Shown piece after piece: positions 6,901-36,126 of a DNA stretch of 64,000 nt; the first letter of the stretch is position 1; every line of letters starts with the position of its first letter. The translations under genes were made by a program, and so were the position numbers. The notes under the pieces are model-generated. The model searched no databases. It had not been told where the DNA came from and worked only from the letters and a program-made list of their open reading frames with translations. Source of the stretch: Callorhinchus milii (lineage: Eukaryota). The stretch spans positions 11,036,001 through 11,100,000 of the forward strand of contig NW_024704749.1 in NCBI RefSeq assembly GCF_018977255.1, given 5' to 3'.

Positions 6901-9571
6901 AGTCTGACAGTGAGCGTGGTGTGGTTTGCAATTTTGAGGACGTTTCACTGGGTCTTACATCAGCCTTATCCTATCCACATGCACAGATTTTCCCACTGAA
7001 TAGTGAACAATTGCAGGGATTTGCGTTGAATTCTCCTCTGTACACCCCCAGGATGATGGTGGGCAGGGGTGGGGGGGGGTGGGGGGGGAGAGAATCTTGA
7101 CATCAGATTCAGTCAGAATATATATATACACACACAGAGAAAGGACTGGAGGTCAAACTGAAGCTCGCTACTGAATGACACAAACAACAGCTCCTGTCAT
7201 ACAGGCTTGCACCCATCAGGAGAAGCAGCGACAGAGAAGTAATAATAATTATCCTTCCATTTGACATGGCCCTTATCACATCGTTGAGACGTCCCAAAGC
7301 GCTTCATAGGATACACTGTAACGTGGATTGACTGTGTATGTTGGCTTTACCTGAAAGGCTGCCTGACATTCCTCCACCAGCCCCTGCACCAGGTAGTACT
7401 TGGCCTCTGCCAGTAGCTCCTCTATTTCCCTGTTGGTCTCAGGCAGCGGCACAGCCCCATCCCGCAGGTAGTTCAGAATGGCCCCGAAATGCTTCCCACA
7501 ACGGTCAATCAGGATCCAGCCTGAGGGAACAGCAAGAGGTCAGGAGATTCAATCCCAGTTTCCTCCTCAATCCCAGGCGCTCTCTCTCCTCCCACGCTAC
7601 ACGACCCCGCAAACGAGCGGACCTGGGTTCGATCCCCGGGCGGGTCAAAACCTTAAGTCACGTTTCCTCACTCCACACACCTCGGCTTACCCAGCGGCAG
7701 ACTAGGGAGCCGGTTGCCAGTCAGGGAGCGGAGGGGAAGAGGGACAACGATCGGCCACGATAATAATAATAATAATAATCCTTGCATTTGCTATAACGTT
7801 TTTCACGTTGGGAGGACGTCCCAAAGCGCTTCACAGAACACACTGTAAAGTGAATTGACTGTATATTTGTGGGCGAACGCGGCAGCCAATTGCGCACAGC
7901 AATGTCCCACAAACAGTCGTAGATTGACAATGACCAATTTATTATTGTTTTTGGTTTTGGAGGGATTATTATTAGGCTCTGTGTGGAGTAAGGAAACTTG
8001 CCCAAGGTTTCACCCTCTGCCTGGAATTGAACTCAGGTCTCTCACTTGCAAAGCGAGTGCTCTAACCACTGAGCCACAGGACTCCACGATCTCACAGAAA
8101 GGTGGAACGGGGCTCGAGCGGCTGAACGGGCCGGGCCGGTCCGGGCTCCTGTCCCTATGACAGGCCGGGAGGCCAAACGCGTTAAGGCGAGCGGGGAGGG
8201 GTCGGGAGGGGTCGGGAGGGGCGACACAAAGCAGCGGTTTTACCTTCGCTGTCCGTCAGCACCTCCATCCTGCCGCTGAACATGGCCTTCAGCATGGTGT
8301 CCTGCTTGGTCAGGGTCTGCATGGTGGTGTAGTACAGGGCGCCCCCCACGTTCAGCTTCACGTACTTGGAGCTGGGGCTGTTGCCCTTGAAGGAGGTGGT
8401 GCGAGTCGTTGCCGCAGGAACTGGGCTCACTGCACTGTCTCCCGACATTCTCTCTTCCTGCGCGAGGACAGNNNNNNNNNNNNNNNNNNNNNNNNNNNNN
8501 NNNNNNNNNNNNNNNNNNNNNNNNNNNNNNNNNNNNNNNNNNNNNNNNNNNNNNNNNNNNNNNNNNNNNNNNNNNNNNNNNNNNNNNNNNNNNNNNNNNN
8601 NNNNNNNNNNNNNNNNNNNNNNNNNNNNNNNNNNNNNNNNNNNNNNNNNNNNNNNNNNNNNNNNNNNNNNNNNNNNNNNNNNNNNNNNNNNNNNNNNNNN
8701 NNNNNNNNNNNNNNNNNNNNNNNNNNNNNNNNNNNNNNNNNNNNNNNNNNNNNNNNNNNNNNNNNNNNNNNNNNNNNNNNNNNNNNNNNNNNNNNNNNNN
8801 NNNNNNNNNNNNNNNNNNNNNNNNNNNNNNNNNNNNNNNNNNNNNNNNNNNNNNNTTTTCACGTCGGGAGGACGTCCCAAAGCGCTTCACAGAATATACT
8901 GTAAAGTGAATTGACTGTATATTTGTGGGCGAACGCGGCAGCCAATTGCGCACAGCAATGTCCCACAAACAGTCGTAGATTGAAAATGACCAATTTATTA
9001 TTGTTTTTGGTTTTGGAGGGATTATTATTAGGCTCTGTGTGGAGTAAGGAAACTTGCCCAAGGTTTCGCCCTCTGCCTGGAATTGAACCCAGGTCTCTCA
9101 CTTGCAAAGCGAGTGCTCTAACCACTGAGCTACAGGACTCCACATAATAATAATAATAATAATAATGATAATAATGATAATAATAATAATCGCCTCATCA
9201 CGTCTCCCGAGACGTCTCAGAGCGCTTCACAGGATACGCTGCGAAGTGTAGTGACTGTGCGTTTCGCGGGAGGTAACGCCTCAGCCGGTTGCGCCCGGCG
9301 GCGTCCCCGCGGTTGGGGTGAGAGTAGGGGGGGGGTGGGGGGGGGGTTGTGGGAATGCAAGTTGTTGTTGTCGTCGTCAGCAGACACCCAGGCCCCAGGC
9401 CTCGCCCCGGCCCGCGGGCCGCGCGGGGCCCGCGAGCCGGGAGTCCGTGTGTGTGTGTGTGTGTCAGCCCGAGAGAGAGAGAGAGAGGGAGAGGGGGAGA
9501 GAGGGAGTCCCGGGGCCCGCGCGCGGTCTCGCTCCCACCCGGAATGTTCCCGAAGCTTCTCCGCTCACCAT
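3977..9571 (-). CDS. KCTD10: BTB/POZ domain adapter for CUL3-mediated RhoA/RhoB degradation KCTD10 (BACURD3); 7 coding exons, 311 aa
   Basis: Minus-strand exons: 9571-9569 (ATG only, followed by GTGAGC), 8457-8244, 7520-7351, 6643-6557, 6128-6076, 5680-5485, 4189-3977 (TGA). All introns are GT-AG and phase-consistent; total 936 nt. Peptides [83 protein letters not shown] and [19 protein letters not shown] are characteristic of the KCTD10/TNFAIP1/KCTD13 family; the N- and C-termini (MEERMSGD..., [10 protein letters not shown]) fit KCTD10. Confidence 0.95.
7760..8088 (-). mobile_element. tRNA-derived SINE, young subfamily copy
   Basis: Nearly identical to the copies at 8856-9143 and 29810-30138; (AAT)n tail. 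Confidence 0.9.
8472..8855. other. Assembly gap (others at 31901-32229, 32419-32622, 33520-33765, 34351-34542, 54495-54637)
   Basis: Runs of N. Confidence 1.
8856..9143 (-). mobile_element. tRNA-derived SINE, young subfamily copy (tail lost in gap)
   Basis: Nearly identical to 7760-8088. Confidence 0.9.
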
Positions 9572-9800
9572 CAACCGCCGCCCGCCCGCGAGCCCCGCTT
9601 CCCTGTGTCTGGGCCCCCGCCGGAAACCGACTCCGCTCTGAACACGGGGACTTCCGCCCCGCTTCCGCGTCACGATCAGGGACTTCCGCCCCCCGCTTCC
9701 GCGCCACACACACAGGGACTTCCGCCCCGCACCGCGTCACACACACACACACACACAGGGACTTCCGCCCCGCTGTGTCACGCGTCAAATCCTCCGGTGC
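9190..9800 (-). promoter_or_regulatory. CpG-island promoter and first exon of KCTD10 with repeated ETS/GC-box cassettes
   Basis: GC- and CpG-rich. Four copies of GGGACTTCCGCCCC (minus strand GGGGCGGAAGTCCC) at about 9647, 9679, 9715 and 9758, plus CGTCAC half-CRE motifs, upstream of the ATG|GT exon end at 9569. Confidence 0.75.
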
Positions 9801-12142
9801 TTCTAGCCACTGCCCTGCGAAGAGTTCCGTGCCCCCCCCACATAGTCTCTCAGTGTTGTAGCTGTGTGTATGTGTGTTTGAGGGGAGGTGGTGGTGGTGG
9901 TGGGGTTGGGGGGGGGGTCTAATGCTTCAGGATCACTGACCAGGTCCCGGCCCCAGCCCCGTCTTTCTCACGGCCAATGGAGTTGGGTCTCGATTGACCC
10001 CACCCACCCCCCCACCCCCCTAACCCCCCACCCATCCGCTGTGACCCCAACATCAATATTTATAATACTTATAATAATAATCATCATCATCGTCATCGTC
10101 ATCATCCCTGCCTTTGGTCCGGAGCCTTTCACGTCGGGAGGTCGTCTCGAAGCGCTTCGCAGGACTTACTGTAAAGTGTAGTGACTGTGCGTCTCGCAGA
10201 CGAGCGCGGCAGCCCAATTTGCGCCCAGCGACGTCCCCGCAAACAGCCGTGACGTGAACGATTGATTTTATCTGAGGAGGGGGATTGTCGGCCAGGAGAC
10301 CGGGAGAGAGAGAGAGAGAGAGAGAGAAACTCCCTTCTCTTTTCCAATAGTCCCACAAGATCTTTGAAGGCACAGAGGGTGGGGGGGGGGGGGGGGGTGG
10401 GGGGGGAGTTTAATGTTTCATCCGAACAATGAGGGCTCTGGCAATGAGCGCTGATTAGCTCAGAGGTGCATCGTGGTTGCGTTGCTGATCGGTCAATGTG
10501 GGGTTCGAGAGGAACCATTGTTCCCTTTGACCGTTCACTGCCCCTTGTGGTCTTCAGGAAGCCTCAGAGGCGAGAGTGTGACCGACAGAGCCGGGGCTGA
10601 CACACAGGTCATGATTCAGTCCGTCCACTGAACCACAGCCCACATTCCTGCGTCAATGCATCTTTTATTTCCCATCAACAGTTTCACCCCCACTCTCACC
10701 CCCGCCCCCCCCCCCCACCAAAAAAAGGTGCAAATAAACAGGAGCAAAGTTTCCACGTTCTACAAGACGTAAATCAAATGAAATTGGGGGGTAAAAAAAA
10801 ATGACAAATTTTAATGTTCAATATTTTCCAGAGTTTCAAGAATAAAAGTTATCCGGATTATTTTTTGACGTAATAAAGGTTCCGACTCGGCAGCGGAGGA
10901 TCCATGGATTAGAGAAAAGAATCCACGATCAGGAATGGGGAGCAGATGGAACCTCTGGGGGACTTGACGAGAACGGGCGACTGACACAAAGGTCACAACA
11001 ACAACAAATTACATTTACATTTCACATCGGGAGGACGTCCTAAGGTGCTGGACAATCAGGGATTTGGTCCCGAGTTCAAAGTACAACAACAACAACAACA
11101 ACAATAACAAGTTCAGCTTGGTTGCGTCCATTTTGTTTGGTTCACATGAAGTGGCCCTGCCTGGATGGAGAGAGACAGAGAGCTTTGTGGAAGGGAAGCA
11201 CGGCACCTGGAAGGAGAGGGAAGGAAGGAGGGAAGGAAGGAAGGAAGGAAGGAGGGAGGGAAGGAAAGAGAGAGGGGATAGAAAAGAACAAACATGGGCA
11301 ATCGAAGCCCACGTTGACTCCTGGTGGCTGTTGAGACCTTTCCACTTGCTGACCAATGGCCCCCAGGTCTCTGCTTGCTCCACTTTCTGGGCTGAGGGGG
11401 CGCGTGGTGGGGGGGAACTCAGCAGGCGATGGATGATCTGCAAATGGGAGAAAGATGGAAAAATATGGGAAGAACATTTTTTGAACTGCAGGGAAACACG
11501 GCTTCCAAATTGAGACCTGGTTTAAGAATATCCCGCCATTCTGGCCAAAAAAACAGCCTCGTGGGCTTAGGTTGAATTTCGGGACTTGGAATTCCATCCT
11601 GTCCGGGATTTCCATTTGACCTGGTGATAATAATAATAATCCTTTCATTTGGTACAGAGACTTATCACCTCGTTGAGTCAACTCAAAGCGCTTCACAGAA
11701 CATACTGTAAAGTGAGCTGACTGTGTATTTTGTGGGCGAAACGCGGCAGCCAATTGCGCACAGCAGCGTCCCCACAATCAGTCATGGATTGAGTGACCAA
11801 TTTTTTCTTTGTAGGGATTATTACCTCCAGAAAGCGATCCGCCAATTGACTAAAAACTGGGATGATGACAACATTGTTCACTTCACTCACCAATCTTCAA
11901 GGTCCCTCTCTCACCAGGTTTCCCCATAAACGACAACCATCCTCATGACCTGGAGATGTCTCAAAGCGCTTCACAGAAAGTACTGTAAAGTGGTAGTGAC
12001 TGTAGATTTTTGTTGCAGATGAAATTCCCCTGAAAACTCTGGCAGAGAGCATAATTCAAACCCTCTGATACCTACCGTTAAGGTATTATAGAGCAGGAGA
12101 AACGTTCTCTCCTCTTGACATCGTTCGTTCCACCGTCCCCAT

Positions 12143-15100
12143 GTTAGTGTTACTGGATTAGTAAGTGTTAACTCTTTAGTGACTGTTCGGTGCAGACTCA
12201 CCAGCATTCCCAGGGTTAATTTACAATCATAATCCTTCCGTTTGATACAGCGTCTTATCACGTTGGCGAGACGTCTCAAAGCGCTTCACAGGATATACTG
12301 TAAAATGTCGTGATTGTGTACTTTGTGGGCAAAATCTACACAGTAAACATATCCACAGTGTGAATCCACAGGGTGAAGCTACAGCTTGAATCTTAACAGG
12401 AATTCCTTGGCAGAGGTGTAGGCAATGGTGCGCTCCTCCTGAGAGCTCGGACCATATCGCTGGTGGATGGGAATTCCGAATAGGATTCCTCAACAAGACG
12501 CCATTAAGAAATAGCGCAGGATAAAGCCCCGTGAACAATGTTGGAAGCTGGTGATTTAAAGAAGCGGCGGGGAGGTGGGGGCGGGGGGGGGGGGCGGAAA
12601 GGGGAGGGTTACACAGCGTGGGGGTTAAACGGCAGCAGGTCTGCACAGAACAGTCTGATTAGTCACAGTTAATATGGTTAGTGAGGTTAGTAACACCAGA
12701 GCCCTTGTTCATTATTAGTTATTGGGTTAGACACACGCATATCCTGCAAACGGCAAAAAACACACACAGAGCACATGTCTACACGGGTTCGGGGACATCA
12801 GCAACCTATTAACCCTCCCCCCCCCCCCACCGCCCCTACCCCTTCAAAACACCCTGTGTCACCTGGAATTTCCTGCTTGCAAGCACTAAATTCCTCCTTA
12901 CAAACACTCAGCACACGACCGGGTGACTGCTAACCTCCCTGCGGCTGTGTGTAAAGGGACAAAGAAGAGGGAAAGCTTGCCAGACCGTGCTCTCAACGGC
13001 AAAGCTGTGTGGTCTTAGCTGGTCAGACTCCAGCAGTTGCCCCACAACGCACACTCTCCCAACTCCTTCCAAACCTTGGCTCTCACGCCAACCTGCGCCC
13101 GATACTCTCCGGAATTAGCTGAGCAGGATACGTCTCTCCAGAAAGAAGGAAAGAGAGAGAGAGAGAGAGAGCACATTTGCTTCCAACAATTTAGCTCTGG
13201 GATTTCCAAGTGTAGATGGAATGCAGGGAATTCTCAGTCGGGGTTTGGCACGGTGATGGGTTTCCGCGTGTGTCAAACACCCAGCTGACCCCAAACCCCC
13301 ACTGCAAAGTGTTGCGTAATAGTAACACAGCCTTGGGACCTGGGGTTTGGCCCCCACATGATTGGGGCTGGGTACCTGTTTCCCCCCCTTCCCCCCACAC
13401 TGCTCTCCCCCCACACCGCCCCAGTGCTGAGTGGCTATAGACAGGAATATTACTGCCTGAATATCCTGGAAATTCCCATACACTACAAAGCATTTAAAGG
13501 GACGCTGCCACCCTGCAGAGATTGGGGAGCCTTCCTCATCCAACCAGACCCGGTCACTCACTCACTCTGTCTGCTCATCACTGCCGTCAAACACCCAAGG
13601 TTTTACCCCGTCCGGGAATCGAACCCGGGACCTCTCCCTCCCTCCCGCCCTCCCCTCCGGAAAGCGATCCGCCAAGCCACTAACAACTTTAATGAAATAA
13701 AAAATAATAATGATTTAAAAACAATAATAATTAACGGCTGGAGGGTGGTCAGGGTGCCTACAGGATGGCACCGTGTGTCAAGAAGCAAAGAGGGGGAACG
13801 GGGGATACAGAAGGGTATTGAAGGGACCATTTAACAATATCTGGGTCGAATGTTCAAAGCTCCAGCTGTGTTAACATCTGCGGGGTTTACAGGCGGACAG
13901 AGGTGAAATACGGCTCTGGTGTGTTGGCAGAGAAAGGCTGAGGTGGGGGGGTTGGGGGCGAGGAGATACAGGAGCCAGGACAGCGTACCCAACCCTGTAC
14001 TCCCAGGTCTCCTGGGATTCTCGTTATTCCCAGGAACCTCTTACATACACTTCCCCTTCCTACTTTATCCTCGTCACATTCACAACACGTGACAGAAACA
14101 CACGGGTGTCACATTTGTCGTGTTCACAACACGTGACAGAAACACACGTGTCATCTTTGTCACACTTAAGCCCGACTCATGGGGTGGGGGTGGTGGTGTG
14201 GGTGGGAGGCAGAAAGAGAAATGAAGGGTGGGGGGGGACTGGGATTCATCCCAAATAAGGCAGCGTCCCTTTCAACAGCGGAAAAGTGGAGTCGAGGTGT
14301 GTGGAAACGGTGCTTTTTACAAACAAAAACATATAAAGACCAGAGTGTAAAAAAAAAAGATTTTTTAAAAAACAATCCGCACACACCCCTCCCCCTCAGG
14401 GAGATTGCGTCGAAGACACGACACGCATGCATTGCAAAGCTTTGGGGGCCTTCGCCCTCCAATGTTAGTATGCGGTTCACTATTAGTCGTGTTAGTAACC
14501 GTTAGTAAAAATGGCCAGCGATGGATCACTGGCTTGAGGGCAAGGGATTAGTACCTGTTCTCTTGGAGCTAAGATATCAGCCCTCACAAAGGAAATACAT
14601 TAGAGTTTTCTGTGTCTCCCTCTCTCTCTCTCTCGATCTCTCTCTCCGCAATAACCCAGTCCCCAGCCTCTGGTCCGTGTCTGTAACCTGTTTAGGACTG
14701 ACTGAGTATTGCCTCAACACAATCAGTGCTACACAAGTTCCCTTGACAATCTCTGGGCTCGTCCTGTGGTTGGAACAGTGGCTGGCACACTGCGGCAGTG
14801 TGTGTGTGTGTGAGGCTGCGGAAATAATACTATTAATAATATTCCTCGAGACGTCTCGAAGCGCTTCACAGGATATATCCCGTAAAGTGGAGTGACTGTG
14901 TATTTTGTGGGCCCATCCAATTGTGCACAGCGGGCGTCCCACAATCAGCCGTGGATCGAGTGACTCAATTATTATTTTTTTCAAGGGATTTTTGTGAGGG
15001 GGAATTCACTGGACAGTGTTTGCGTTCAGTCACCCACATCCCCCTCAAAACGTGTCTGTGATCCCCTCTTTGCCCAGCGCTTTGGGACGTCCTCCCGACG

Positions 15101-18100
15101 TGAAAGCCACTCTACAATTACAAGGGCAGTTGCTTTGAGGTGAGCTCACAGAGAGTGAGTCCCTGGGTTTAGGTAACTCTTGATGCAGTGATACAGTCTG
15201 CAGGCCGCTGTGTGAAACATAGGGCACGTTTGGGTTTATTTGCCTTTGCTCTATGCCCCTAAACCCCAGCTCCGCACCCCTTCCCTTCTCTCCCCCCTTC
15301 CCCCCGGGTATGGCTTAGCCATCAGGAAGGCAGAGTGCGGTCATTGGCACACACTGGAAGTGGCATCATTGTCGACGTGATGCCCCGGATGTGTGATCGT
15401 GGCCATTTTTCCCCCAGACCCGGGGCGGTGGATATTAAAGATGAGATTGGCGTACAATACGCTGTGCTAAGACGCAGGGCAACACCTTGTGTTGAGACCC
15501 TGAGCAACATCTTAGTGGTCGCTGGCCAATTGGAATGAGAGCTTCATTGGGGTGAGCTTTCTGGGGAGGAAGCCATCAACAGGGGCAAATGTAGATCATT
15601 TACACCACGAACAAAAGCCCCAATCAAGGGACTCACTCCCTTCATTCACACAACATCGGCCTGAGATTGTATTAGCTGCGTTGGAACAGAAGAGCACAGG
15701 TCAAACCAGGACACAGGACACGATCAAAACCGGCATTGAAACTGGGTCAGGCTGAGAAAGGGTTCAAGCGTAAACAATCACAACACCAATCGTGGGAATA
15801 AATATTAAGAATAATAATAAAAATAATAATAATCCTTGCATTGGATGTATCCCCGTCATCAACCATCGTCGAGACGGGTGGGGGGGATTTTCGGCCAGGA
15901 CACCGCGAGAGAGAAACTCCCTTCTCTTTTCGAAAAGGGTCGCGGGACATTCAATTCCAGATTTTTTTTAGATTTTAAGGGGGAGCGGAAGGTTAGCAAG
16001 AAGCGGTTGAGAGACACAGAAAACCTCCGACAGGCTTCAAATAACAATTAGTACTCATTAGTATGTGTTAATTTGGTTAGTGCATGCAGCGATTTAGTAC
16101 AGAGCAACCTCTGAGCTCTGATATTATTGTGAGTTAATCCATGCAGTTTTTATAACACACTTTTTTAGGGACTGTATTTGGCAAAGTGATTTTAATTGAA
16201 AGAGCAGAGAGAGAGAGAGAAAGAGAGAGAGAAAAGCACCACCGATCTCTGCTGGGACGAACATTCGCACCAGCGAATAAGACTATTTACATTCTGCTGA
16301 TCAGTCTCTTTCTCTCGCTCTCCTCAAGTGGAAAGGATTAATAATAATAATAATAATAATCCTTGCATTTGAAATAGCGCCTTATCACTTTGCTGAGACG
16401 TCTCAAAGTGCTTCACAAAATATATTGTGAAGTGGGTTCACTGTGTAATTTGAGGGCGAAACGCGGCAGCCAATTGCACACAGCAGCGTTCCCACAAACC
16501 GTCGTGGATCGAGTGGCCACATTTTTTTTGGAGGGATTATTATCCCCAGAAAGCGATCAGCCAAATGACTAACAACTGAATTCCTGTTACTGCTGCGTAA
16601 ACGGAGGCGCGTGGAGTCAGGAAACTTGTGTAACCTTTCGCCCCGCCCGGGAATTGAACCCACTACGGGACGCGATAAATTAAGGGAATGAAGTGTGTTA
16701 TAAATCCGTTAGTGAATCAAACGTCATTCACCCCGCTCTCACCCCCGTCCCTCTCTCTCTCTCTCTCTCTGGGTTAAAGACGGCAGCGTTTGCTAGCCTG
16801 TTATCTCAACAGGCTGGCAAACTGGCTCAATAGAGCCAGCCTAGACCCTGGGCAGGATATCTCCCCTCGTCACTTGTTCCCCAATAAGAAGCTGCGTAAA
16901 ACAAACAATTGGTTATTGCAAGTTATTGTAAAATCACATCAGGTTCGGGCCTGGATTGGAACCCAACCTGGTTGAATATGTTGCCATCACACTAACGCGT
17001 ACATAATGACCACTTGGGGTGAGGTATTGGAGAGCGTTGAGGGTTCTTGCTGATGTCCGTGGAACCATAATCTGAGGGAAGGAAAGATTGGAGGGAAATA
17101 TTAAGCGATTGAAGAACACACTCTGATCTACGTTACAGCTTCCGCTGTCCATTCCGTGACATCGTTTCCTAGCGGCTTCTTGTTCTTTAATCGGGCTCCA
17201 ATGAGCCCCTAAGGTCCTGAAATTCCTCGTGCTCCTAGACTCAAGACCCCTCACTCAGTTTTAATTGGGGTTCCAGTTTTCCACAGGGCATTTCCCCCCC
17301 CTACCAAGTCTGAGTTTAAAAATCTTCCAAAAATTCAGTGTGGTGCTAAAATTTGGGAGAATGAAACTCCTTGTTTCCAACAGCGCTGCGTTGGGAGATC
17401 TTTAACGTCCACCTAAACGGAGCGCAGATGGGGAGTGGTTTAGCGTCTCGTCTGAAGGACGAACACCTCCGGCAATGCTTCGCTCTCTCCTCTCCCCCCC
17501 CACTCCCCTCAGCTTGAACCCACAACCTTCTGACTCAAGAGTTGAGAGCGCGACCGACTGGCTGAGAAGCTTATAGACGAACCAGTTAATCTCAGTTAGT
17601 AAAGAGTTTACTCAATCAAAATTAGTAAAGGTTAGTGTCTGTTAGTGCTGGTTAGTAGCAATGCATTAGATAGGAACACGTCACATCTGTTTCAGGTCCT
17701 CTTTGTCCCCAGGTTTGTCTTAACTGCTCAGATACAAGCGAGACGCAGGTGCTGGTGTTTTGGGTTTGGTATCTGAAACAAACCTTGCTTTTAAACACAT
17801 CGAGATGTCTCGGGCAGGTTGCCCAGTGACTTACTTTGAAGTGCAGTTACTTTTTCTGTAGGCAAACTTAACAACAATAATAATCCTGGCATTTGACACA
17901 GCGCCTTATCACGTCTTCGGGACGCCTCAAAGCGCTTCACAGAATACACTGTAAAGTGAATTGACGGTGTATTTTGTGGGCAAAACGTAGCCAATCGCAC
18001 GCAGCAGCGTCCTACAAACAGTCGTGGATTGAATAACCAAATGATTCTTTTTTTGGAGGGTTTATTACACCAGGAAGGCAATCCGCCAATCGACTAACAA

Positions 18101-20168
18101 CCAGGTTCCTACCTACTGCTGGGTAAACAGAGGCGTGTGTGTGGAGTAGGGAAACTTGCCTAAGGTTTCGCCTCATTTGGGAATCGAACCCGGGTTCTCT
18201 CGGGTGCTAACCACTGCGCTGCAGGATTCCACGTGATGCTGACTCTGGGCTCAGTCTCGCTACCCGACTTTCCTCTCGCCCTCCCCTAACGGTGTGGGTA
18301 ACACGAAGAGCTCCTGATCAGGAAGGAACGCACGAGCGTTCCACAAACACAATCCGCTGTTATCAAGCCAAGAGGCAAGTCGCAAGGGACAATATAATTA
18401 GTAGCAAAGTACAGGGTAATTATAGCAGGGGAAAGAACAGGCCCACGTAACTGCCGATGACTGGCAACGTTTACCAACCAGGCTGGATATTATTCAACTT
18501 CAGCTTCTGTTGGCAAAACACCTATTGTTCCTTCATTATTTTTCTCAAACACAGAGAATGCTGCTCCAATGGAATGAGCTCAGGCACTTCCCAAGTACAC
18601 AATTAATCTCAATCTAAGGAGCTTTCTGTCCACCTCTTCCCACCTCTCTCTCGCCGTCTCTCTCTCTCTCTCTCTCTCCCTCAGAGCTCTGAAGTGGGAT
18701 TTCCTGTAAAGTAATATGAACGGGAATGTTTGGAATTTCCGCTATTTGGCTGACAACCAGATTCCTACTTACTGCTGGGAAACAGAGGCGTGCGGAGTAA
18801 GGAAGCTTGCCCAAGGTTTTGCCCACCTGGGAATCAAAGCCGGGTAGTCTCGCTTGCGAAGTGAGTGAGTGCTCTAACCATTAAACTACAGGACCTCTTA
18901 AAATGACACCCGACTGCAAAGTGTTACACTGCACCAAAACTCAGTATTATTAGGCTGTTAATAACTGGAAATGTTAGTATCAGATTCAGCATCACTTAAG
19001 AATATGCGAGCAAACATGCATTGGTTGGGTTAGTACAAGAGTAGAATATTCCAAGGCAGTCACTAATAGCAAAGGATTCACTCATATAATAATAATAATA
19101 ATCGTTGCGTTTGGTACGGCGCCTTATCACGTCGTTGAGACGTCTCAAAGCGCTTCACAGAATATACTGTAAAGTGAATTGACTGTATATTTTGATCCAA
19201 TTGTGCACAGCAGTGTCCCACAAATAGTCATGGATTGAGTGACCAAATTATTATTAATATTTTGTTTTTTTGATTGTTTTATTACCCCCGGTTAGTGATC
19301 CACTAATCGACTAACAACTGAGTTCCTACTATCATTGCTGTGTTGAGATTCTATGAAAGCACATTATGTTCTGTTGCAACTCCAGTCAAGTTGTTCAGCT
19401 GTTGCTTTTTCCTTCACATAATTTACCAGTGAATTGGGGCCTTGAGCAATGATCTTCTGAGGTGCGGAATCAGATTAAGGGGATTTGGATTAGAGCTGCT
19501 TTGTGTATTTCTAATATTCATTTATGTGAGTAACTAAATGCAGTTTCTGCTTCAGAGTGTATCGTAGTCATACAACGGCAATCTGTCTCCGGGCAGGAGA
19601 GGCAGGAGAACTGAGAGGCACAAGATGCTGTGAACTCCCTGACTGTAATAACTGTATTCCTCTTTCTACAATTGCCGCTCTTAGACTGAGTACTGGAAGG
19701 AAAATAACATTGGGCACCGCTGATGATAGCACAGCCCAACCTGACTCATCGGCAGGCCTTGGCAGGGCAGACCAGTCACTGGGGGCAGGGAATCCTCCCA
19801 CCTCAACTCCTGTTAACCCTGCAGCCAAAGCCCTGATGGATAGCAAGGGAATGGGGTTAGAGTAGAGAGCTCCAGTGGGGGAGCGAGCACCAGCACCGAC
19901 ACTAAATGACCTTCTGTGCTGTGAAATTTCGATATTTTATCCACAAGTTGAGAGCGAGAAGATTACTCAGTGACGGTCTCAGTATAATCTAAGAGGGTAT
20001 AATCTTGATGAGCTCCATCTCATAAAGAAAGAGATAAATTAGTAAAAGATGAATCTGGGTTAGTACAACATTAATCTGTTAGTAAAACCTCTTTGGAGGT
20101 TCAGTCAGATCTTGCAGTGTTAATACGTTAATTTCAGGTTATAGAAACAGGTTAGTGAAGTAGTTAGT
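12143..20168 (-). repeat. Dispersed clusters of (T)ACTAAY (SF1 branch-point-like / QKI motif)
   Basis: Plus-strand GTTAGTA at 12686, 14464, 14491, 14501, 17595, 17651, 18973, 19029, 20059, 20078. Further GTTAGT at 12143, 12677, 16076, 16708, 17631, 17641, 19291, 20151, 20163. ATTAGT at 12157, 12658, 12714, 14482, 14547, 16047, 16057, 17621, 18397, 20038. Counted by eye. Confidence 0.9.
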
Positions 20169-21824
20169 GTTACCTTTCTCTTAAAAAGCATTGTTCTTTG
20201 TCTAACGCACTGGGGAGAGCAATGCAAACAGAATCCATCTGTCCTCACCCATTCCCCGCACACACATGCATCACCCAAAGGCCTCACTGCACCATAGCCA
20301 AGCATGTCTCCTTCCTGGCCCAGGGACACTGAAGCCAATCGCTCTGTACTCCCACTTGAGAGCCCTGGAGATCAGCCAACGCAGCAAGTATGGGCCACTG
20401 CCCCTCCCCATCCCATTCCTTCCCCCGCCCCACCCCATCTGGGTTGCTCAGTCTCACACTGGTTTGTGCTTTTACCAACTGAGATGAATGCAACTTTGTT
20501 GGGAACCATTTCGCTTTGAATCGCTCCGGTTGTGGGGAACATTGCTCAAGTAGTATCTGCTTACAGAATTCCCTGTAACAGAGGAACCCAGACACCAAGA
20601 GAAACTCGGATGGGAAATGCATAGACACAAGACACAGGACAGCTTCTGTGAGCTCGTTGGACCAAATGGCCTCTTCTCACTCTGTATCCTCATGTCTTGT
20701 CTTGTGCTCCCGAAGGCAGTGATATCCGTTCCGGCTCCGATCGCCAGCAGTGCCTGATGTAACTGCTCCAGACTGTCCCTAACCCACAGCTGTCAATCTG
20801 ACAACCTCAGCCTCCAAAACTCAGAATGATCTCAGTCTCTGTGGTTGAGACCCTAAATTTAAACCCTTCACCTGATAACAACAATCCTCGGGGAGCTTGC
20901 CCTGCCCTGGAGACCCAGATCTTTGCTTGTGTTACCAACCCAGAGGCATCTTAATAACAAGAGATTGCATTAACCATCAACACACAGTCTCACGCACAGC
21001 CTCACGGAGCAGGTCAGAGGATGGGAGCCCATCTCACAATTCAGATGATATCTCTCAAAGCCTCCAGGCTTTTTCCACTTGTGGAACTGAGGACATCTGA
21101 ATGGCTCTCTGCCTTGGACAATCCACCCCACCCCACCAGAGATGCCTTGCTCAGCACATCTGTACACAATGATCTTGTCTCGCCTTAGAAACCACTGCAA
21201 ACCATGGGCTTGTCAACGCCATCGACTGTGCCTTTCACTCGGGCGCTCTCTCTCTTGGCTCCTGGTCCACATCCTCTCTCTCTCGCCCCCTCTCCCTCTC
21301 CTTTGCCTCGCTGCCTCAGGGCGCCAATCGGGGTTCCCACATCCACGTCAAAGGGAATGGTCACTCCAGGACTTGCCAATGCTGGACTGACCTGCAAGAT
21401 ATGGAAGAGATGGTCAGTCATTATCAATGGTGTTCTGGCCTTGGGATTCAGATAACACACGCAGGAATCTCTCTCTCTCTCTCTTTCTCCCAGCAGTTTC
21501 AGGGCGTAGTGGCTGAAGGCCCGGCCATCAATGGTGGAGCAGAGGGCACGAGGGACAAGCAGGAGGCCGGAAGCCAGTCGAGCGGAGGCAGCCGGAAGTG
21601 GGTTGGGGAGTAAGCAAGTGGGAGAGATAGGTGGGGTGCCAGGGCGTGAAGGGATTTGAAGACAGATTACCTCCTCACCGAGACATCCTCACACTCCCAG
21701 TCACCGGGGCGTCCCAGCCGAGCTCCATCACACTCACTGGAAGGAGAAAAATGTGGGAAAAGAAAATAAATTGAACATTCACGCCAGACTTGACAACATT
21801 CCTACATCAGCTGGGAGCTCAACT

Positions 21825-22115
21825 CAGTCAGTCGGTCTTGGCTGATGTTCCAGCACAGTGCTGGGGTGGGTGGGGGCGAACACCGCATTGTCAGAGGTGC
21901 CGTCCTTCAGATGGGATGTTAAACTGAGCTCCCGTCTGTGCGCTGTTCAGATGGACAATAAAGATCCCATTGCACTACTCCGAAAGAGAAGAGAGTTTCT
22001 CTCTCCCCCTCGGTGTCCCCCTGAGAGAGAGCGAGAGAGAGACAATAATTGGTCAGGCACTGGCTGTTTGTGGACTGCTGCTACGTGCAAATTGGCTGCC
22101 GCATTCACCTACAAG
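21825..22115 (+). mobile_element. Deu-domain SINE (SacSINE1/AmnSINE1-related) fragment
   Basis: GAGGTGCCGTCCTTCAGATGGGATGTTAAACTGAG...GATGGAC..AAAGATCCCATTGCACTA...GGTGTCC resembles the Deu-SINE central domain as I recall it. Related copies at about 10280-10600 (-), 17370-17570 (-), 35590-35750 (+), 49810-49970 (-), 58690-58850 (+). Confidence 0.6.
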
Positions 22116-23789
22116 ATACACCATCACTGTTCACACAATCATGCATACGTGCAGACACAGACCCTGGTGTGTGTGCATGTGTATGTGTATGTGTATGTGT
22201 GTGTACGTGTCACTGCTGACCCCATGAGCTAAGCCACATCAATCCCATCAGTTTCAAACAGCCTTGGTTAAAGGTGACACTAAGGTAAGATCCAGCTCCA
22301 GCCTCCACTCTGTGGCGTTACAGGCCAGATGGACGCAATAGCTCTTTTTTTTCTCTCTCTCTCTCTCTCTCTCATTTTTTTTGTTACAAACTCCAATCTG
22401 GGATTTGCCAGCCAACAAAGAGGTCAGGGCTCTCAGCGAAAGGAAGGGATTTGATGCACTCACAGGACGCAAAGATGAGGGAGTTTGAGTGGAATGTGGT
22501 GGGTGGAAAGAGGATTTTTTTTTGGCTGAGATCATCTCTGACGGTTTAATTGCTGTGCGCAATTGGCTGCCGCGTTCGCCCACAAATATACAGTCAATTC
22601 ACTTTACAGTGTGTTCTGTGAAGCGCTTTGGGACATCCTCCCGACGTGAAAAGCGCTATATCAAATGCAAGGATTATTATTATTATTATTATTATTATTA
22701 ACCCCTGGAGAGAAACCAAGAGGCCAGAGGGGAGCTGCGAATGATGGTGGCAACTGTCCTCTCCTCACCCCTCCCTTCCCATCGCTTGCTAATCCCCAGT
22801 CACTCCGAGTCCCGAATTAAACTGCTAAATTGAAATGACAAGCGAAGAAGAATCTAAGTGCTATTAGGCAGATCTGGGCTGACGTTGCAATTTAATTAGT
22901 TTTATATTTGATGTAGCTGTTGCCCTCCCCTCCCCTCTCCCTCTCTCTCTCTCACTTTCCCCTTCTCATCTTTTTTAAAATTGAGATAACGTGTCTAGCT
23001 ACATAGGAACAGGAAGAGGCCATTCAGCCCCTCGAGTCTGTTCCGCCATTCTATTGGATCACGGCTGATCTGTATCTCAATTCCAATTATTGCGTTACAT
23101 TTAATCCTAAATCATAAACCCTTGCATTTGATATAGGGCCTCATCACATAGTCGAGACGTCTCAAAGTGCTTCACAGGATATACTGTAACGTGTAGTGAC
23201 TGTGTATTTTGTGGGACAAACGCGGCAGCCAATTGCGCCCAGCAGTGTCCCCGCAAACAACCATGAAACGAGTGACCAATGTTATCTGGAGGTTGAACCC
23301 AGCAATCCAATAATCTACAGGACCCCTATGTTTTATAGGATTTATAGATGAAGGTGAGACCTTGAACTCGGTCCGTTGGGTGACAGGGAGACAGCGGGTC
23401 TTGGTGAGGATGGGCGTGATGGGTGTGCGAAGCTGCGGTAGGGAGGAGGGAGGAGAAATAAATGGCAAGAAAAAAAGGCCGCTTTTTCATTAACTGTGAT
23501 GAACTGTCAGCAGGAAGTGTGGTTACATGGTGTGAATTACAAGTCTATTTGCAGGCCGGCGCTATAACCAGCTGATAGCTTGAAGCAAATGTCAGCAACA
23601 CGCACTTTTCTCTCTCTCTCTCTCTCCCCCTCTTCGTGGAGTCACGTGCAGAGCACACGGCAGCACACAGCAGTGCGAACACGCAGTGGGGGAGGGACAG
23701 ATCCACAGATTAACGCCTTCGACCGTTCCCCCCGCCCCTGCTCACACTTCTGTGCACTACTTCTTGACTGCCTGACTACACCACATTCT

Positions 23790-26150
23790 TAATAATAATA
23801 ATAATAATAATAATCCTTGCATTTGATACAGCGCCTTATCGCGTCATTGAGACGTCTCAAAGCGCTTTGCAGAATATATATTGTAAAGTGTATTTTGTGG
23901 GCAAAACGCGGCAGCCATTTGCGCACAGCAGCGTCCCACAAACAGTCGTGGATTGAGTAACCAAATTTTTTTTGGAGGCATTATTACCCCCCGAAAGCGA
24001 TCCACCAGTCGTCTAATAACCGGGTTCCTACCTACTGCTCGGTAAACAGAGGGCGTGTGGAGTAAGGAACTTGCTTGAGGTTTCACCTCACCCGGGAATC
24101 GAACCCGGGTCCTCTCGCTTGCGAGACGAGCGCTTTAACAACTACACCGCAGGACTCGATTAATGCTACATGACAGGAATGAGTGAGGGGTGGGGAGGGG
24201 GGGGGGGGGGGGGGTAAAGGGAAATGTGGGGATGGGGTTAAGACTAGATTCTAAAAATAATCATCCTTGTGTTTGATTCAGTGCCTTATCCTGTTGGGAG
24301 GACATCTCAAAGTGTAAAGTGTAGTGACTGTGGGTTTTGCAAGGGAACGCGGCAGCCGATTTAGGCCCAGCGACGTCCCCCACAGACAGCTGTGAAACCC
24401 CTTCTGCCATCAGAACGCTCCAATATCCCACAGCCACCAGTCAATTTGAGATGCACAGGGAGGAACTACGAAGGACTTGACATTATCCACTGTAACGCTG
24501 GGAGCAAATAAGCAAAATACATTCGAGGAACAGCACCTCATTTATCTGCTCGGGACCTTCCCGCCCTCGGGCCTCAATATTGATTTCAACAATTTCAGAC
24601 CGTAACATCTCACCTTCCCCCCGTCCCCCACTCTTCCGTGACCATCACCACATCATCCGGGTCCCAGACACACCTTTCCTCTCTCTGGTCGACCTGTTTT
24701 GTTGCAATGTTCTCCCCTCTTTTGTTTTGCATCATTAACACCGCTTTAACCCATCATCCCCTGTCCTCTGCCCCATTTTCTCTTCCTTGCCCTGCCTTCC
24801 CCCTCTCTCCGTTAACCCTTAAAAGCCTCTCCCTCCTAACATGCCCCAGTTCTGACGAAGGGCCCTGGACCCGAAACACTGACTCACTTTCCTCTCTCCA
24901 TAGATGCTGCCTCACCCGCTGAGTGTTCCCAGTGACTTCTGTTTTGTAGCAAGTAAGACAACGCTGTTGGAAGATGAGGTGCAAGTGCAATGCTCTGGTG
25001 TAATTTATGCACTTCCAACCTGCTTTGCAAAGCTAAGTGTAGTTTACTCCAATCCAACTGTACCGATGGAACCTCTCACCAAGTTCCGCTTGAGCAAACT
25101 ACACCGAGCTTTGCAAACCACTGTGGTGAGTGAGTGATCGATTTATCAACAACAGCAAACGACAATTACACAGCGCCTTTCATGTCGGGAGGACGTCTAC
25201 AAAAGCTGGACAATCAAGATTGGGTGGAGGACAGGGGTAGGAGGGTGACCGAAGGCGCGGTCGAAGAGGAGGGTCTTGAGACGGGCTTCGAAGGAGGCGA
25301 GGGAGGAGGCGAGGTGGAGGGAAGTGTGGGATGGATGGAGTTCCGTTGGGTGAGGCCAGAGAGGCTGAAGGCCCGACTGAGAATCAAACCCGGGCCCTCT
25401 CGTTTGCGAGGTGAGTGCACTCACCACTACACCACACTACAGGCCGCCCCTATCCTGTAATTACATATCATTTCTCACAGTCAACAAATAATTTTCATTC
25501 GTCAAGAAACTACAGACGTGTAATTATCACGAGGAACGTCGTGGAATGTCACAAAGGGGTTTCACAGCTGTTTGTGGGGACGTCGCTGTGCCTAAATCGG
25601 CTGCCGCGTTCCCTTGCAAAACCCACAGTCACTACACTTTACAGTGAATTGTTTGAAGCACTTTGAGATGTCCTCCCAACAGTATAAGGCACTGAATCAA
25701 TCACAAGGATGATTGTTATTAGGATCTAGTCTTACCCCCCCACCTCCCCTCACTCACTCCTGTCACGTAGCATTAACCGAGTCCTGCAGTGCAGTTGTTA
25801 AAGCGCTCGCCTCGCAAACGAGAGGACCCGGGTTCAATTCCCGTGTGGGGTGAAACCTCAAACAAGTTTCGTTACTCCACACGCCTTCTCTTTACCCAGC
25901 AGTAAGTAGGAACCTAGTTGTTAGTCGACTGGTGGATTGCTTTGGGGGGGGGGGGTAATAATATCTCCAAAAAACATTTGGTTACTCAATCCATGACTGT
26001 TTGAGGGACGCTCCTGAGTGCCATTAGCTGCTGTGGTTTGCCCACAAAATACGCAGTCAATCCACTTGACAGTGTATCCCGTGAAGTGCTTTGAGACTTT
26101 TCAATGACGTGATAAGGCGCTGTATCAGATGCAAAGATATATTGTTAGTG
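23790..26150. repeat. Long inverted duplication, arms ~23790-24401 and ~25556-26150
   Basis: The arms share two SINE pieces and the non-SINE linker between them (TAATGCTACATGACAGGAATGAGTGAGGGG / CCCCTCACTCACTCCTGTCACGTAGCATTA) in inverted orientation. Confidence 0.85.
24410..24947 (+). mobile_element. Penelope-like element 3' fragment (GIY-YIG C-terminus and pLTR)
   Basis: About 24522-24605 translates as FEEQHLIYLLGTFPPSGLNIDFNNFRP*, typical of the PLE endonuclease tail; followed by a CTGACGA...GAAAC hammerhead-like core at 24852-24877. Confidence 0.65.
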
Positions 26151-26660
26151 TTATGATTCACTCTCCTCCACTGTCCAAAGTGATCTCCGATGGTTGTAAT
26201 GAAAAGACAGCGCAATTAATTTTGTCCATTAAGAAATGAGCGTAGACTTTTGCTGTTGATGGCAGTAACGCGATCAATGAATATATTGCTAATAAAACGA
26301 CAATCACCCAGCTCTGAACTGAACTGTACCCTATGGAGCGCAGAACATCCCTGTTGGCCAGTTTAACACTGGGTTTAAACTGCGCGTGGAATTGTACCGA
26401 TATATAAAGATCTCCCACTTCTCCCTCCCACCCCATCCAACTACACCCTATACATCAATGGATTATCCAGAGCCACATCTATTGCTAATCTACAATTACA
26501 TATACATTTCAACATGTCACCTCGCTTTTTTTGGTCAGCCGGGTGTCTGACATGTGCGGAAACCCATCACCACGCTTAAGAATATCCAAACCAAACTGGT
26601 AAGATTAAATAATTAATTAATTCGCCTTAGTATGTGCAGCTCCCACCCCCCCACCCGCCC

Positions 26661-26697
<37 letters not shown>

Positions 26698-29600
26698 TCT
26701 TTCCATCACCTGCATAATCTCTCGTCAAAGCAAGAATACTTTTGAAACGCTGATCTCAAGTCTCGCGAAAAAAAAACTCCCAAATCTACATTTTCTCTCT
26801 TTCTCTCTGGCTGCAACTGAACATTATTACTACGTTACCTAATTCGCTTAGGACTTAGATTTAACACAGATTAAATGTCTAATTTTGGCTAATTTACCGG
26901 GGCTGGGTTCAAATAAAACAATCGCTATTTTCATTCCGATCCCAGATACAGAACGAATGATCTGAATGGGGTGAAATGGATAAACCTTATGTATGTGAAA
27001 AAAAAATGTTCATTTGTATTAATTGCAGGACATTTAATCCATGCACACTCCCCCCGTCCATTTGGGATCAATTTCATGCAGATTAATTTATGCATGTATG
27101 TATTCAATTGCGCTTTTCTTTGAAAAAAATGCCCCCCTCCCCCCATTATCTTTTACCAAACCTGCAATCAACCTTCCTCACACAATCCCCAGAAACTTAA
27201 TGATATCACCCCTCCACCCCCCCCCCCCACACACACACACAAAACACCTCAATCAAAATGAAATATATACGATCGACGAGTAATTTGTAACCTGGTAATG
27301 TTTCGCCCACAAAACACATAGTCAATTCACTTTACAGTATATGCTGTGAAGCGCTTTGAGGCATCTCAAAAACGTGATAAGGCGCTGAATCAAATGCCAG
27401 GAAAATTGTTATTACATTAATTTTATACAACCTGACAATTCATGTGGGGAATTTTGGGATTATCTGTAATATTTGCCGAATATTAGAAAGAGCGCACACA
27501 CACAAATAATAATTCAAATAAGGTTTGCGCCTCTCTCTCTCTCTCTCTCTGCATTGCTGATAGACAGATCCACTTACATAACACTGCACAAGAAGGAAGG
27601 GATATGGAACAACCATCAAGGACGGACAGACAGACAGACATCTAGTCAGAATCTCCCTCACAATCTGTGCACAATTTTGCTGCAGGTTAAAATGGCCATA
27701 TTTAGTATCTCCCAGAGACACACACACACACACACATACACAGCAAAAATCAGTACAGAATCACAGAGGGAGGAAATAAGTATTTTTTACACACGCACAT
27801 CAAATATACTCCACATCTCCCGGGGATTCAATGACAATCGATTAAAACTTGCAGCGTTTATAACAACCTGTTTTTTTTCAGATGCTTGACGTCGTTCAGA
27901 ATGGTGTCTTACCTGCTTAAAACCTTTATTTCCCCTTCAGTGAGCCTTTCAGAGGAGATTCCCTGGGAGGGTACGAGAGGAGAGAGAGAGAGAGAGAGAG
28001 AGAATAATAAAAATAACAGTCACCTCCTTTGTTGTCCTGTTGTTTCTGCCTGGTTTGCTTTGCAAAGAGATGGATGGCACTTAATGAAATAGCTCATAGC
28101 GTGGGGGGGGGTCAGTCAAATGGACACCACGGATCTCAAGTCCGAAGCATTTGCAAAGGAGAAAATAAAATTTGGTGTTGATTCATTTCAGGCTGACGGT
28201 AAATAAAAAAATGGAGATATTTTCACGTCCCACTTTTTCTTTCCTCCCTCCCTCCCTTCCTCGATGTGTTAGCCCCCAGCCTGGTCGAACAGCATTTGGG
28301 TATGTTGCAGAAGCCGTCAAGATCAAAGCGCTTTGAGACGTCTCGAAGACGCGATAAGGCGCTACATCAAATGCAAGGATTATTCCTATTCTTATTATCA
28401 CACGCACAAAGGTTACCTGCTCAGACGAAGCCGTGAGGATGGGTGGATGCTTTCATTGTGCCAGGCAGAGACACCTTGCAGCACAACGGCTGAGCAGAAG
28501 TGCAGTCCACACTCACTCACGCAGATATCTATTAAAAAGAGAGCGTGGAAACGAAAAGGATCGCACACATCTCTCTGTGCGTCAGGCAGGCGGGGGCACA
28601 GGGTGGTTCCTGCAATAGGAGGGAGAGGAGGGGTGGGGGGGGGGGGGAGAGAGAGAGAGAATTCTCTGTAATTAGTGTCACGGTGAATGAGGAGGTCTGG
28701 CTGAAAAGCAATGAATAATGAATCCATCTGCACTGCCTTGAATAGGACGGCCAGCTGCTGCCCGCCTTTCCCAACCACTCGCTCCCATTGTCTGTCTGCC
28801 TTCTGCTCAGGTCTCTGTGTCACGTACACACCAGCTGTGAGGGGCAAAACAAGGCAACAAGGCTCTCCCCTTTCCAACCCCGGGGCAAGGCGAGGGACCC
28901 ATTGATCGATCGAATGATATCGGATCCAAGAGTGGAGCCCTGTGGTGCAGTGGTTGGCACACTTGCCTCGCACCTGAGAGGCAAAACCTTACACAAGTTT
29001 CCTTACTCCACACTCCTCCAGCAGTAACTAGGAACCCTTGGTTGTTAGTCGATTGGCGGTTCAGTTTCCGGGGGTAATAATCCCGTAAAAGAATAATAAT
29101 AATCCCCGACTGTTTGTGGGGGCGCTGCTGTACACGATTCGCTGCCATGTTTCGCCCCCAAAATATACAGTCCATTCACTTTACAGTGTATCCTGTGAAG
29201 CGCTTTGAGGCGTCTAGAAGACACGCTAAGGCGCTATATCAAACGCAAAGATTATTATTACCCTTTAGATACTTGCTTTTGACACAGCTTGTCAAATGCA
29301 AGGACGTCTCAAAGCGTTTCACAGGAAATACTGTAAAGTGCAGTGACTGTGTATCTTGTGGGCGAAACACGACAGTTTGTGCACAGCAGCGTCCCCACAA
29401 ACAGCCATGGGTTAGGCAACCAATCCTTTTTATTATTTTGGTGGGGTGGGGCAGTTGTTGGCCAGGACACTGAAAGAGAGAGAGAGAGAGAGAGACTCTC
29501 TAGCCTTGGCTTATTTCCACCATTTTTTGATGTTGTTTGGAAATTGAAAATGTTGTTTTTGCTTAAAAAAGGACAAAACCGAAACTCCCCCAAGCTTGCT

Positions 29601-36000: not shown

Positions 36001-36126
36001 CTCGCACACAACGGTGGATATTTCTCCAACTGCCAACCGGCCAAACTCTCAGCCCAAGCCCTGGACGAGGGGGCAGCCAAAAAGCTATGGGACACCAGCG
36101 AACAACTGGTGGGGTTAAGCCACTGA
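32625..36126 (+). CDS. Short-chain dehydrogenase/reductase, DHRS13/RDH11-14-like (5' partial; start codon not visible, probably in the N gap)
   Basis: Exons <32625-33135, 34620-34862, 35133-35435, 35864-36126 (TGA); all introns phase 1 and GT-AG. Motifs: [18 protein letters not shown] (Rossmann TGxxxGxG), [21 protein letters not shown], catalytic YSRSK, SLHPG. A hydrophobic anchor ([10 protein letters not shown]) precedes the domain. Confidence 0.85.
33140..33519 (+). repeat. (GGGCA/GGGCT)n G-rich satellite in intron 1 of the SDR gene
   Basis: Directly visible runs of GGG separated by 2-3 nt; runs into an N gap. Confidence 0.9.

Follow-up and report, generated by a model that had tools for sequence, protein, structure and literature searches.

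The window analysed here, a 64-kb stretch of 64,000 nucleotides, comes from Callorhinchus milii, the elephant shark, a holocephalan. Along it lie KCTD10 (minus strand), a candidate long non-coding RNA (lncRNA) resembling MIAT/Gomafu/RNCR2, an SDR gene (plus strand), CRYBA4 (minus strand), CRYBB1 (plus strand) and a last gene, seen in its open reading frames (ORFs), which we take to be myosin-18-like. The candidate stands out by clusters of the motif TACTAAC on its minus strand, and we consider below whether it represents a MIAT/Gomafu ortholog in a cartilaginous fish.

A one-strand TACTAAC array

Between positions 12143 and 20169 the minus strand holds TACTAAC 10 times (at 12692, 14470, 14497, 14507, 17601, 17657, 18979, 19035, 20065 and 20084) and ACTAAY 29 times, while the plus strand of this interval holds no TACTAAC at all. 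These exact counts bear out an earlier note on this DNA, which had estimated about 10 and about 29 for 12143-20168 and had described seven tight groups, all found in their places:

20038..20169, minus strand: motif cluster 1, five ACTAAY, two perfect TACTAAC; flanks single-copy in a genome search
18973..19035, minus strand: motif cluster 2, two perfect TACTAAC
17595..17657, minus strand: motif cluster 3, five ACTAAY, two perfect TACTAAC
16047..16098, minus strand: motif cluster 4, three ACTAAY and one ACTAA
14464..14553, minus strand: motif cluster 5, five ACTAAY, three perfect TACTAAC
12658..12719, minus strand: motif cluster 6, four ACTAAY, one perfect TACTAAC; within one contig of sequencing run X2 (12588-13136)
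12143..12163, minus strand: motif cluster 7, two ACTAAY; within contigs of runs X1 (11825-12295) and X2 (11841-12295)

The clusters had been placed in unique sequence between short interspersed elements (SINEs), and indeed 28 of the 29 minus-strand ACTAAY fall outside repeats in a self-BLAST mask. The description of ACTAAC on the other strand as mainly SINE-derived is fair, with three of five plus-strand copies in the interval inside the repeat mask. ACTAACC was counted nine times on the minus strand of the candidate (once within a SINE) and never on the plus strand. In the full window TACTAAC occurs 12 times on the minus and twice on the plus strand. At 44007-44077, an intron of CRYBB1 has two minus-strand TACTAAC, antisense to that gene and within a short tandem repeat.

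TACTAAC is the highest-ranked 7-mer of the masked interval, with 10 occurrences against 0.32 expected under a second-order Markov model. Genome-wide, 33,029 forward and 32,728 reverse sites occur in 991.5 Mb, and the reverse-strand rate predicts 0.26 sites per 8.03 kb (Poisson P for at least 10 sites, 3.7e-13). The enrichment previously noted thus holds against the genome background, and a background-like density was not seen, although the expectation of about 0.5 per 8 kb given with that claim was too high. No more than two TACTAAC occur in any of the 895 other 8-kb strand-windows from the surrounding 464 kb; for ACTAAY, the best of these reaches 10, compared with 24 here. Besides, 1000 dinucleotide shuffles of 10800-21400 gave a mean of 0.29 and a maximum of 3 for TACTAAC, and a mean of 3.4 and a maximum of 13 for ACTAAY. 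Since the interval was chosen for its motif, these P values are post hoc, and the gene context serves as the independent test. A genome-wide pattern of three motif sites was also tried and rejected, as microsatellites swamp it.

Among the 21 single-base variants of TACTAAC, CACTAAC (9 vs 0.50 expected) and TACTAAT (7 vs 0.32) are raised and TATTAAC weakly so (3 vs 0.41), while the remaining 18 occur at most once each; TAATAAC is absent against 1.08 expected. The enriched variants form a YACTAAY consensus, which fits the SF1/QKI motif, the Quaking site being ACUAAY (PMC2876091) and the SF1 site UACUAAC (PMC3116199); binding of these proteins is predicted from the variant spectrum and the spacing. 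A TAAY half-site lies within 20 nt of 27 of the 29 sites, compared with 172 of 481 in the background, an excess that is partly circular and to that extent counts against our interpretation, as clustered ACTAAY serve as each other's half-sites. This paired spacing would favour dimeric QKI-type binding. Most sites, judged by eye, have no downstream pyrimidine tract and AG, and are therefore unlike working branch points.

With the motifs masked, the clusters share only SINE ends and matches of 12-17 nt, and they are not copies of one another. A genome search with 19350-21450 placed other copies only at query positions 1549-1739, away from the cluster, among the 40 of 3177 candidates that were scored. 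With no shared cluster flanks and no TAATAAC, the array is explained neither by a tandem repeat nor by the decay of SINE tails.

Gene neighbourhood

The independent test depends on four neighbouring genes:

38210..41039, minus strand: CRYBA4 coding region, upstream of and co-oriented with the motif strand; the synteny anchor
43769..46129, plus strand: CRYBB1 coding region, head-to-head with CRYBA4; best PDB match beta-B1 crystallin, E 3.4e-33
33063..36126, plus strand: SDR / retinol-dehydrogenase-like gene (Si:dkey-174n20.1), tail-to-tail with CRYBA4; adh_short
3977..9571, minus strand: KCTD10 coding region, co-oriented, next gene on the downstream side; best PDB match BACURD3 (presumably the same protein as KCTD10), E 1.4e-23

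CRYBA4 stands head-to-head with CRYBB1 and the candidate lies 3' of CRYBA4, where MIAT is also located in human, mouse and chicken. The candidate is co-oriented with CRYBA4 and 17-27 kb from its stop codon. The location just downstream of CRYBA4 proposed earlier is thus correct as to side and orientation but not as to direct adjacency, because the SDR gene, at about 33.1-36.1 kb, stands between.

One exon of this gene shares 88-90% identity with the CRYBA4 sequences from coelacanth, gar and bowfin vs 63-69% with CRYBA1-type sequences, and the best PDB match of the region is human beta-A4. In an 18-row tree, built from 15 of 61 matches picked by name together with the window and two paralogs, the beta-A exon of the window groups with the CRYBA4 rows with a support of 94/95, slightly below the starred level. 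Head-to-head pairing with a beta-B gene was considered as a diagnostic of CRYBA4 and rejected, as a second beta-A crystallin has such a partner too, so that the identity of CRYBA4 rests on its sequence. That second locus (G000:C10:5726600-5735400), where a beta-A crystallin faces a beta-B1-like gene, is a paralogous copy of the CRYBA4-CRYBB1 pair and carries no TACTAAC array downstream. Over 100 kb around each of the two other beta-A loci of the genome, no 8 kb holds more than one TACTAAC.

An exon of the SDR gene matches UniRef proteins of C. milii named Si:dkey-174n20.1 with 100% identity, in agreement with the species given above, and a protein search with it in a further collection returned only the SDR family. 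The three C. milii UniRef models of this gene begin differently, each with an N-terminus that derives from simple repeats or from a SINE. The segment 33063-33137, 80% identical to a sawshark protein, is a better choice as first coding exon. In coelacanth, the last 55 residues of the SDR model (P0076) fit the antisense of coelacanth CRYBA4 in 50 of 55 codons (next best, 17). The model thus ends in the antisense of a CRYBA4 exon (compared with window positions 38885-39049), a mis-predicted last exon, and we infer from this match that the same tail-to-tail adjacency of SDR and CRYBA4 exists in coelacanth. The position of the SDR gene between the candidate and CRYBA4 therefore seems ancestral.

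On the other side, the GC and CpG profile points to a separate CpG-rich promoter for KCTD10 at about 9500-10000. Six minus-strand CGGAAG sites, which we take to be ETS-like, lie at 9650-9770 in this CpG island. Human KCTD10 shares its promoter with UBE3B; no UBE3B-like promoter partner was seen beside KCTD10 in the window.

Coding potential and transcript evidence

The earlier statement that the interval has no coding potential is supported by Pfam, which matched none of 137 stop-to-stop ORFs of at least 55 amino acids in 9800-31300 and did match two in-frame SDR controls. These 137 were kept from 171, the other 34 being mostly repeat. The longest ORF starting with ATG in 9800-31400 has 168 amino acids. 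The putative RNA is outlined by three predicted features:

10800..21391, minus strand: inferred long last exon of a MIAT/Gomafu-like RNA, with all seven clusters inside; limits inferred
10810..10815, minus strand: predicted poly(A) signal ATTAAA, with CA and then a T-rich tract
10664..10669, minus strand: second predicted poly(A) signal AATAAA, the 3' end given in the earlier note

Sequencing runs were ranked by how much of 11500-21400 they hold, and three of them (X1, X2 and X3, from two studies) are guessed to be RNA, none being recorded as such. Sampled words of 11500-21400 are present in these runs at shares of 0.74, 0.61 and 0.55, with contig totals of 217, 74 and 270 million letters, respectively, compared with shares of 0.65-0.75 in genome-sized runs of 886-963 million letters. 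That such small contig sets hold the interval as fully as genomic ones suggests transcription over the greater part of it. Runs X4-X6, with a word share of 0.05-0.06, were left out, as was X12 from organism B, with 0.00.

Contigs were compared over 9500-13600 for four of 12 runs (X1, X2, X3 and X7). Those of X1 and X2 cover the unique sequence, in pieces, from 10827 or 10860 to 13600. Cluster 7 lies within contigs of all four runs (in X3, 11963-12295; in X7, 11843-12211), and cluster 6 within one contig of X2. The low ends of the listed contigs fall, in the four runs, at 10827-10893, just upstream of ATTAAA, a weak hint that they mark the 3' end near this signal. Contigs of X1, X2 and X7 are absent over 10322-10595, part of which is a skipped repeat, and holes inside the candidate too mean that this proves nothing. 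X2 also has cover in bins 10596-10869, and cover therefore does not end cleanly at ATTAAA. Depths are 200-420 in X1, 136-584 in X2 below 12540 and 33-67 above 12588, 15-20 in X3 and 5-35 in X7; they cannot rank parts or samples, and neither tissue restriction nor 3' bias is therefore claimed. No intron-like joint was seen among the 15 listed of 106, and no poly(A) loose end among the 24 listed of 456. The listed contig joints are cross-matches between SINE copies. A loose end of X1 at 10827 resembles a sequencing adapter and, the library being unrecorded, does not indicate a strand.

Each of the eight SINE copies in 10800-21400 has the sense orientation of the inferred RNA (minus strand), whereas over 464 kb adjacent copies agree in orientation in 48% of cases, and above 22500 both orientations occur. 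This gives mild support to one long sense exon, perhaps starting from a predicted acceptor at 21391 (score 8.5 with a simple consensus matrix). The longest same-strand run among the 385 copies in 464 kb comprises 11 copies at 7764-19329. Further upstream, an AT-rich unique stretch with several TAAT/ATTA words at 26600-27150 may contain the promoter or a 5' exon of the RNA, and possible splice donors are found at 27912 and near 26860. No support was found for the 5' limit of 28500 proposed earlier, which was a guess.

Probable orthology with MIAT/Gomafu

The position 3' of CRYBA4, the motif, the absence of a coding signal and the lineage all fit, and we therefore consider it likely (with a probability of roughly 0.8) that the interval is the long last exon of a MIAT/Gomafu ortholog in the elephant shark. 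The same criteria were first used to propose the chick and Xenopus orthologs (PMC2876091, PMC3116199). The homolog proposed in the earlier note is in this sense supported. Its view that motif and position rather than alignable sequence are conserved also fits, but it had missed that chicken and frog homologs recognised in this way were already published.

Several points weigh against this assignment. The synteny is one-sided, because the far-side neighbour is KCTD10 and the SDR gene intervenes, and orthology rests on one genome, with no intermediate species (other sharks, gar, the coelacanth interval). No MIAT family appears among the 18 Rfam matches up to E 10 in 9500-38300, and those above their own threshold are tRNA-like SINE heads only. 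Rfam 15 holds MIAT models built from mammals. The chicken and frog orthologs are likewise described as unalignable (PMC2876091). Only two of the seven clusters fall inside the region of contig comparison, and the contigs, whose RNA nature is guessed and whose runs carry no tissue label, give no strand, splice joint, poly(A) tail or start. The run of 11 same-strand SINEs is the longest of 385 copies, yet such a run somewhere is not rare. Multiple UACUAAC are, moreover, insufficient for nuclear retention, as Slc8a1 exemplifies (PMC3116199).

Two other explanations are unlikely, to a similar degree. In the first, the clusters would be QKI/SF1 elements of a coding transcript: either CRYBA4 reads through far downstream or has a long 3' extension, or KCTD10 has a long first intron upstream or an extended 5' part. 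CRYBA4 and KCTD10 share the strand of the clusters, and the contigs compared cover no 5' structure and revealed no joint, but the CRYBA4 stop is 17 kb upstream, beyond a gene on the opposite strand, KCTD10 has its own promoter with predicted poly(A) signals between it and the clusters, and the 137 ORFs contain no coding exon while the sites mostly lack branch-point context. In the second, the gene would be non-coding but most clusters would be intronic or in a retained intron, or the RNA would be convergent with tetrapod MIAT. The missing alignment and Rfam match and the reliance on a single genome agree with this, as does a pyrimidine tract with CAG at about 12548-12610 (by eye), a possible acceptor that would exclude six of the seven clusters. 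On the other hand, one X2 contig spans cluster 6, upstream of that acceptor, the word shares of 0.55-0.74 extend over 11500-21400, and convergence is improbable for an array of the same 7-mer at the same gene-relative place when no background window exceeds two sites.

It is still less probable that the contigs derive from a plus-strand transcript (e.g., divergent from the KCTD10 promoter) or from library DNA, the array acting at the DNA level or being unexpressed. The contigs are strandless and only guessed to be RNA, the KCTD10 promoter is about 1 kb away from their low ends, and plus-strand AATAAA occurs at 10733, 10841 and 10872; however, the variants that are enriched fit a motif bound by RNA-binding proteins and are strictly biased to one strand, and the AT-rich sequence around the low ends has the shape of a 3' end on the minus strand and not that of a promoter. 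An origin by chance, from decayed (TAA)n SINE tails or from a diverged tandem repeat is very improbable, for although ACTAAY-rich microsatellites are common in the genome (3,878 matches to the three-site pattern) and a (TAA)n SINE tail yields a look-alike of four plus-strand ACTAAT at 51637-51679, the seven separate one-strand clusters (P ~4e-13) differ in their spacers, share no flank beyond SINE ends and lie, but for one site, outside repeats, with TAATAAC missing.

If the interval is the MIAT/Gomafu ortholog, its RNA would start somewhere between 21.4 and about 33 kb, run along the minus strand to an end near 10800 and offer some 28 ACUAAY sites as decoys. If it resembles Gomafu of mammals, it may be a nuclear-retained neural RNA binding the STAR-family proteins SF1 and QKI; less of both proteins would then be free nearby, which could adjust alternative splicing where branch points are weak. 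Mammalian Gomafu binds SF1 and slows the splicing of introns with weak branch points (PMC3116199), and a titration of QKI against SF1 has been put forward as a proposal (PMC11483029). Nuclear retention in mouse does not require the UACUAAC repeats, nor do they suffice for it (PMC3116199), and the location of the RNA is therefore not predictable from them. The functional criteria of Tsuiji et al. (PMC3116199) are nervous-system-specific expression and nuclear retention in spots.

The candidate would be the first MIAT/Gomafu outside tetrapods in the literature searched. Few lncRNAs are traceable beyond amniotes, and the jawed-vertebrate ancestor lived about 420-450 million years ago. A chondrichthyan ortholog would date MIAT to this ancestor, with only the motif and the address kept over that time. 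Tsuiji et al. (PMC3116199) give human, mouse and chicken, report that no syntenic region was found in other vertebrates, and read such nuclear RNAs as recent, while Rapicavoli et al. (PMC2876091) add a putative Xenopus ortholog and thus reach amphibians. No fish ortholog of MIAT/Gomafu/RNCR2 was found in full-text literature, supplementary tables and database annotation lying outside that search, and the excerpts of PMC6347452, PMC9221589, PMC6468844 and PMC4894931 contain no report of one. We regard it as probable that MIAT/Gomafu was present in the jawed-vertebrate ancestor and that its SF1/QKI decoy array was kept beside CRYBA4 without alignable sequence, the elephant shark array being the largest yet counted (10 TACTAAC and 28 ACTAAY in unique sequence), with QKI-dimer spacing and maintained despite eight sense SINE insertions. 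The mouse knockout has a mild behavioural phenotype (PMC4890022), in view of which such long retention would argue that the decoy array is under selection. The shark RNA would offer a natural test of whether an unalignable RNA with the same motif can replace mouse Gomafu in SF1/QKI binding and splicing.

Like the candidate, human and mouse MIAT/Gomafu/RNCR2 lie 3' of CRYBA4, carry clustered TACTAAC/ACTAACC, are non-coding and are on a scale of about 10 kb (PMC3116199, PMC2876091), with lengths of 10,142 nt in human and 8,701 nt in mouse. Table 1 of PMC3116199, which gives these lengths, counts seven TACTAAC in human, six in mouse and three in chicken, and five to eight ACTAACC are reported for each published ortholog (PMC2876091). 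The shark candidate differs from the human and mouse RNAs in its 10 TACTAAC, its seven clusters across 8 kb with SINEs between them, its lack of an Rfam MIAT match and the SDR gene between it and CRYBA4. Chicken cGomafu and the putative Xenopus tropicalis RNCR2 were, like the candidate, recognised by synteny and motif without alignable sequence; cGomafu differs in its 3.3 kb and three TACTAAC and has been shown to be brain-specific and nuclear, and the frog gene is putative. Compared with the QKI response element arrays and the SF1/QKI competition at branch points described in PMC11483029, the shark sites lie in non-coding sequence and are mostly without a downstream pyrimidine tract and AG, and would therefore be decoys rather than branch points.

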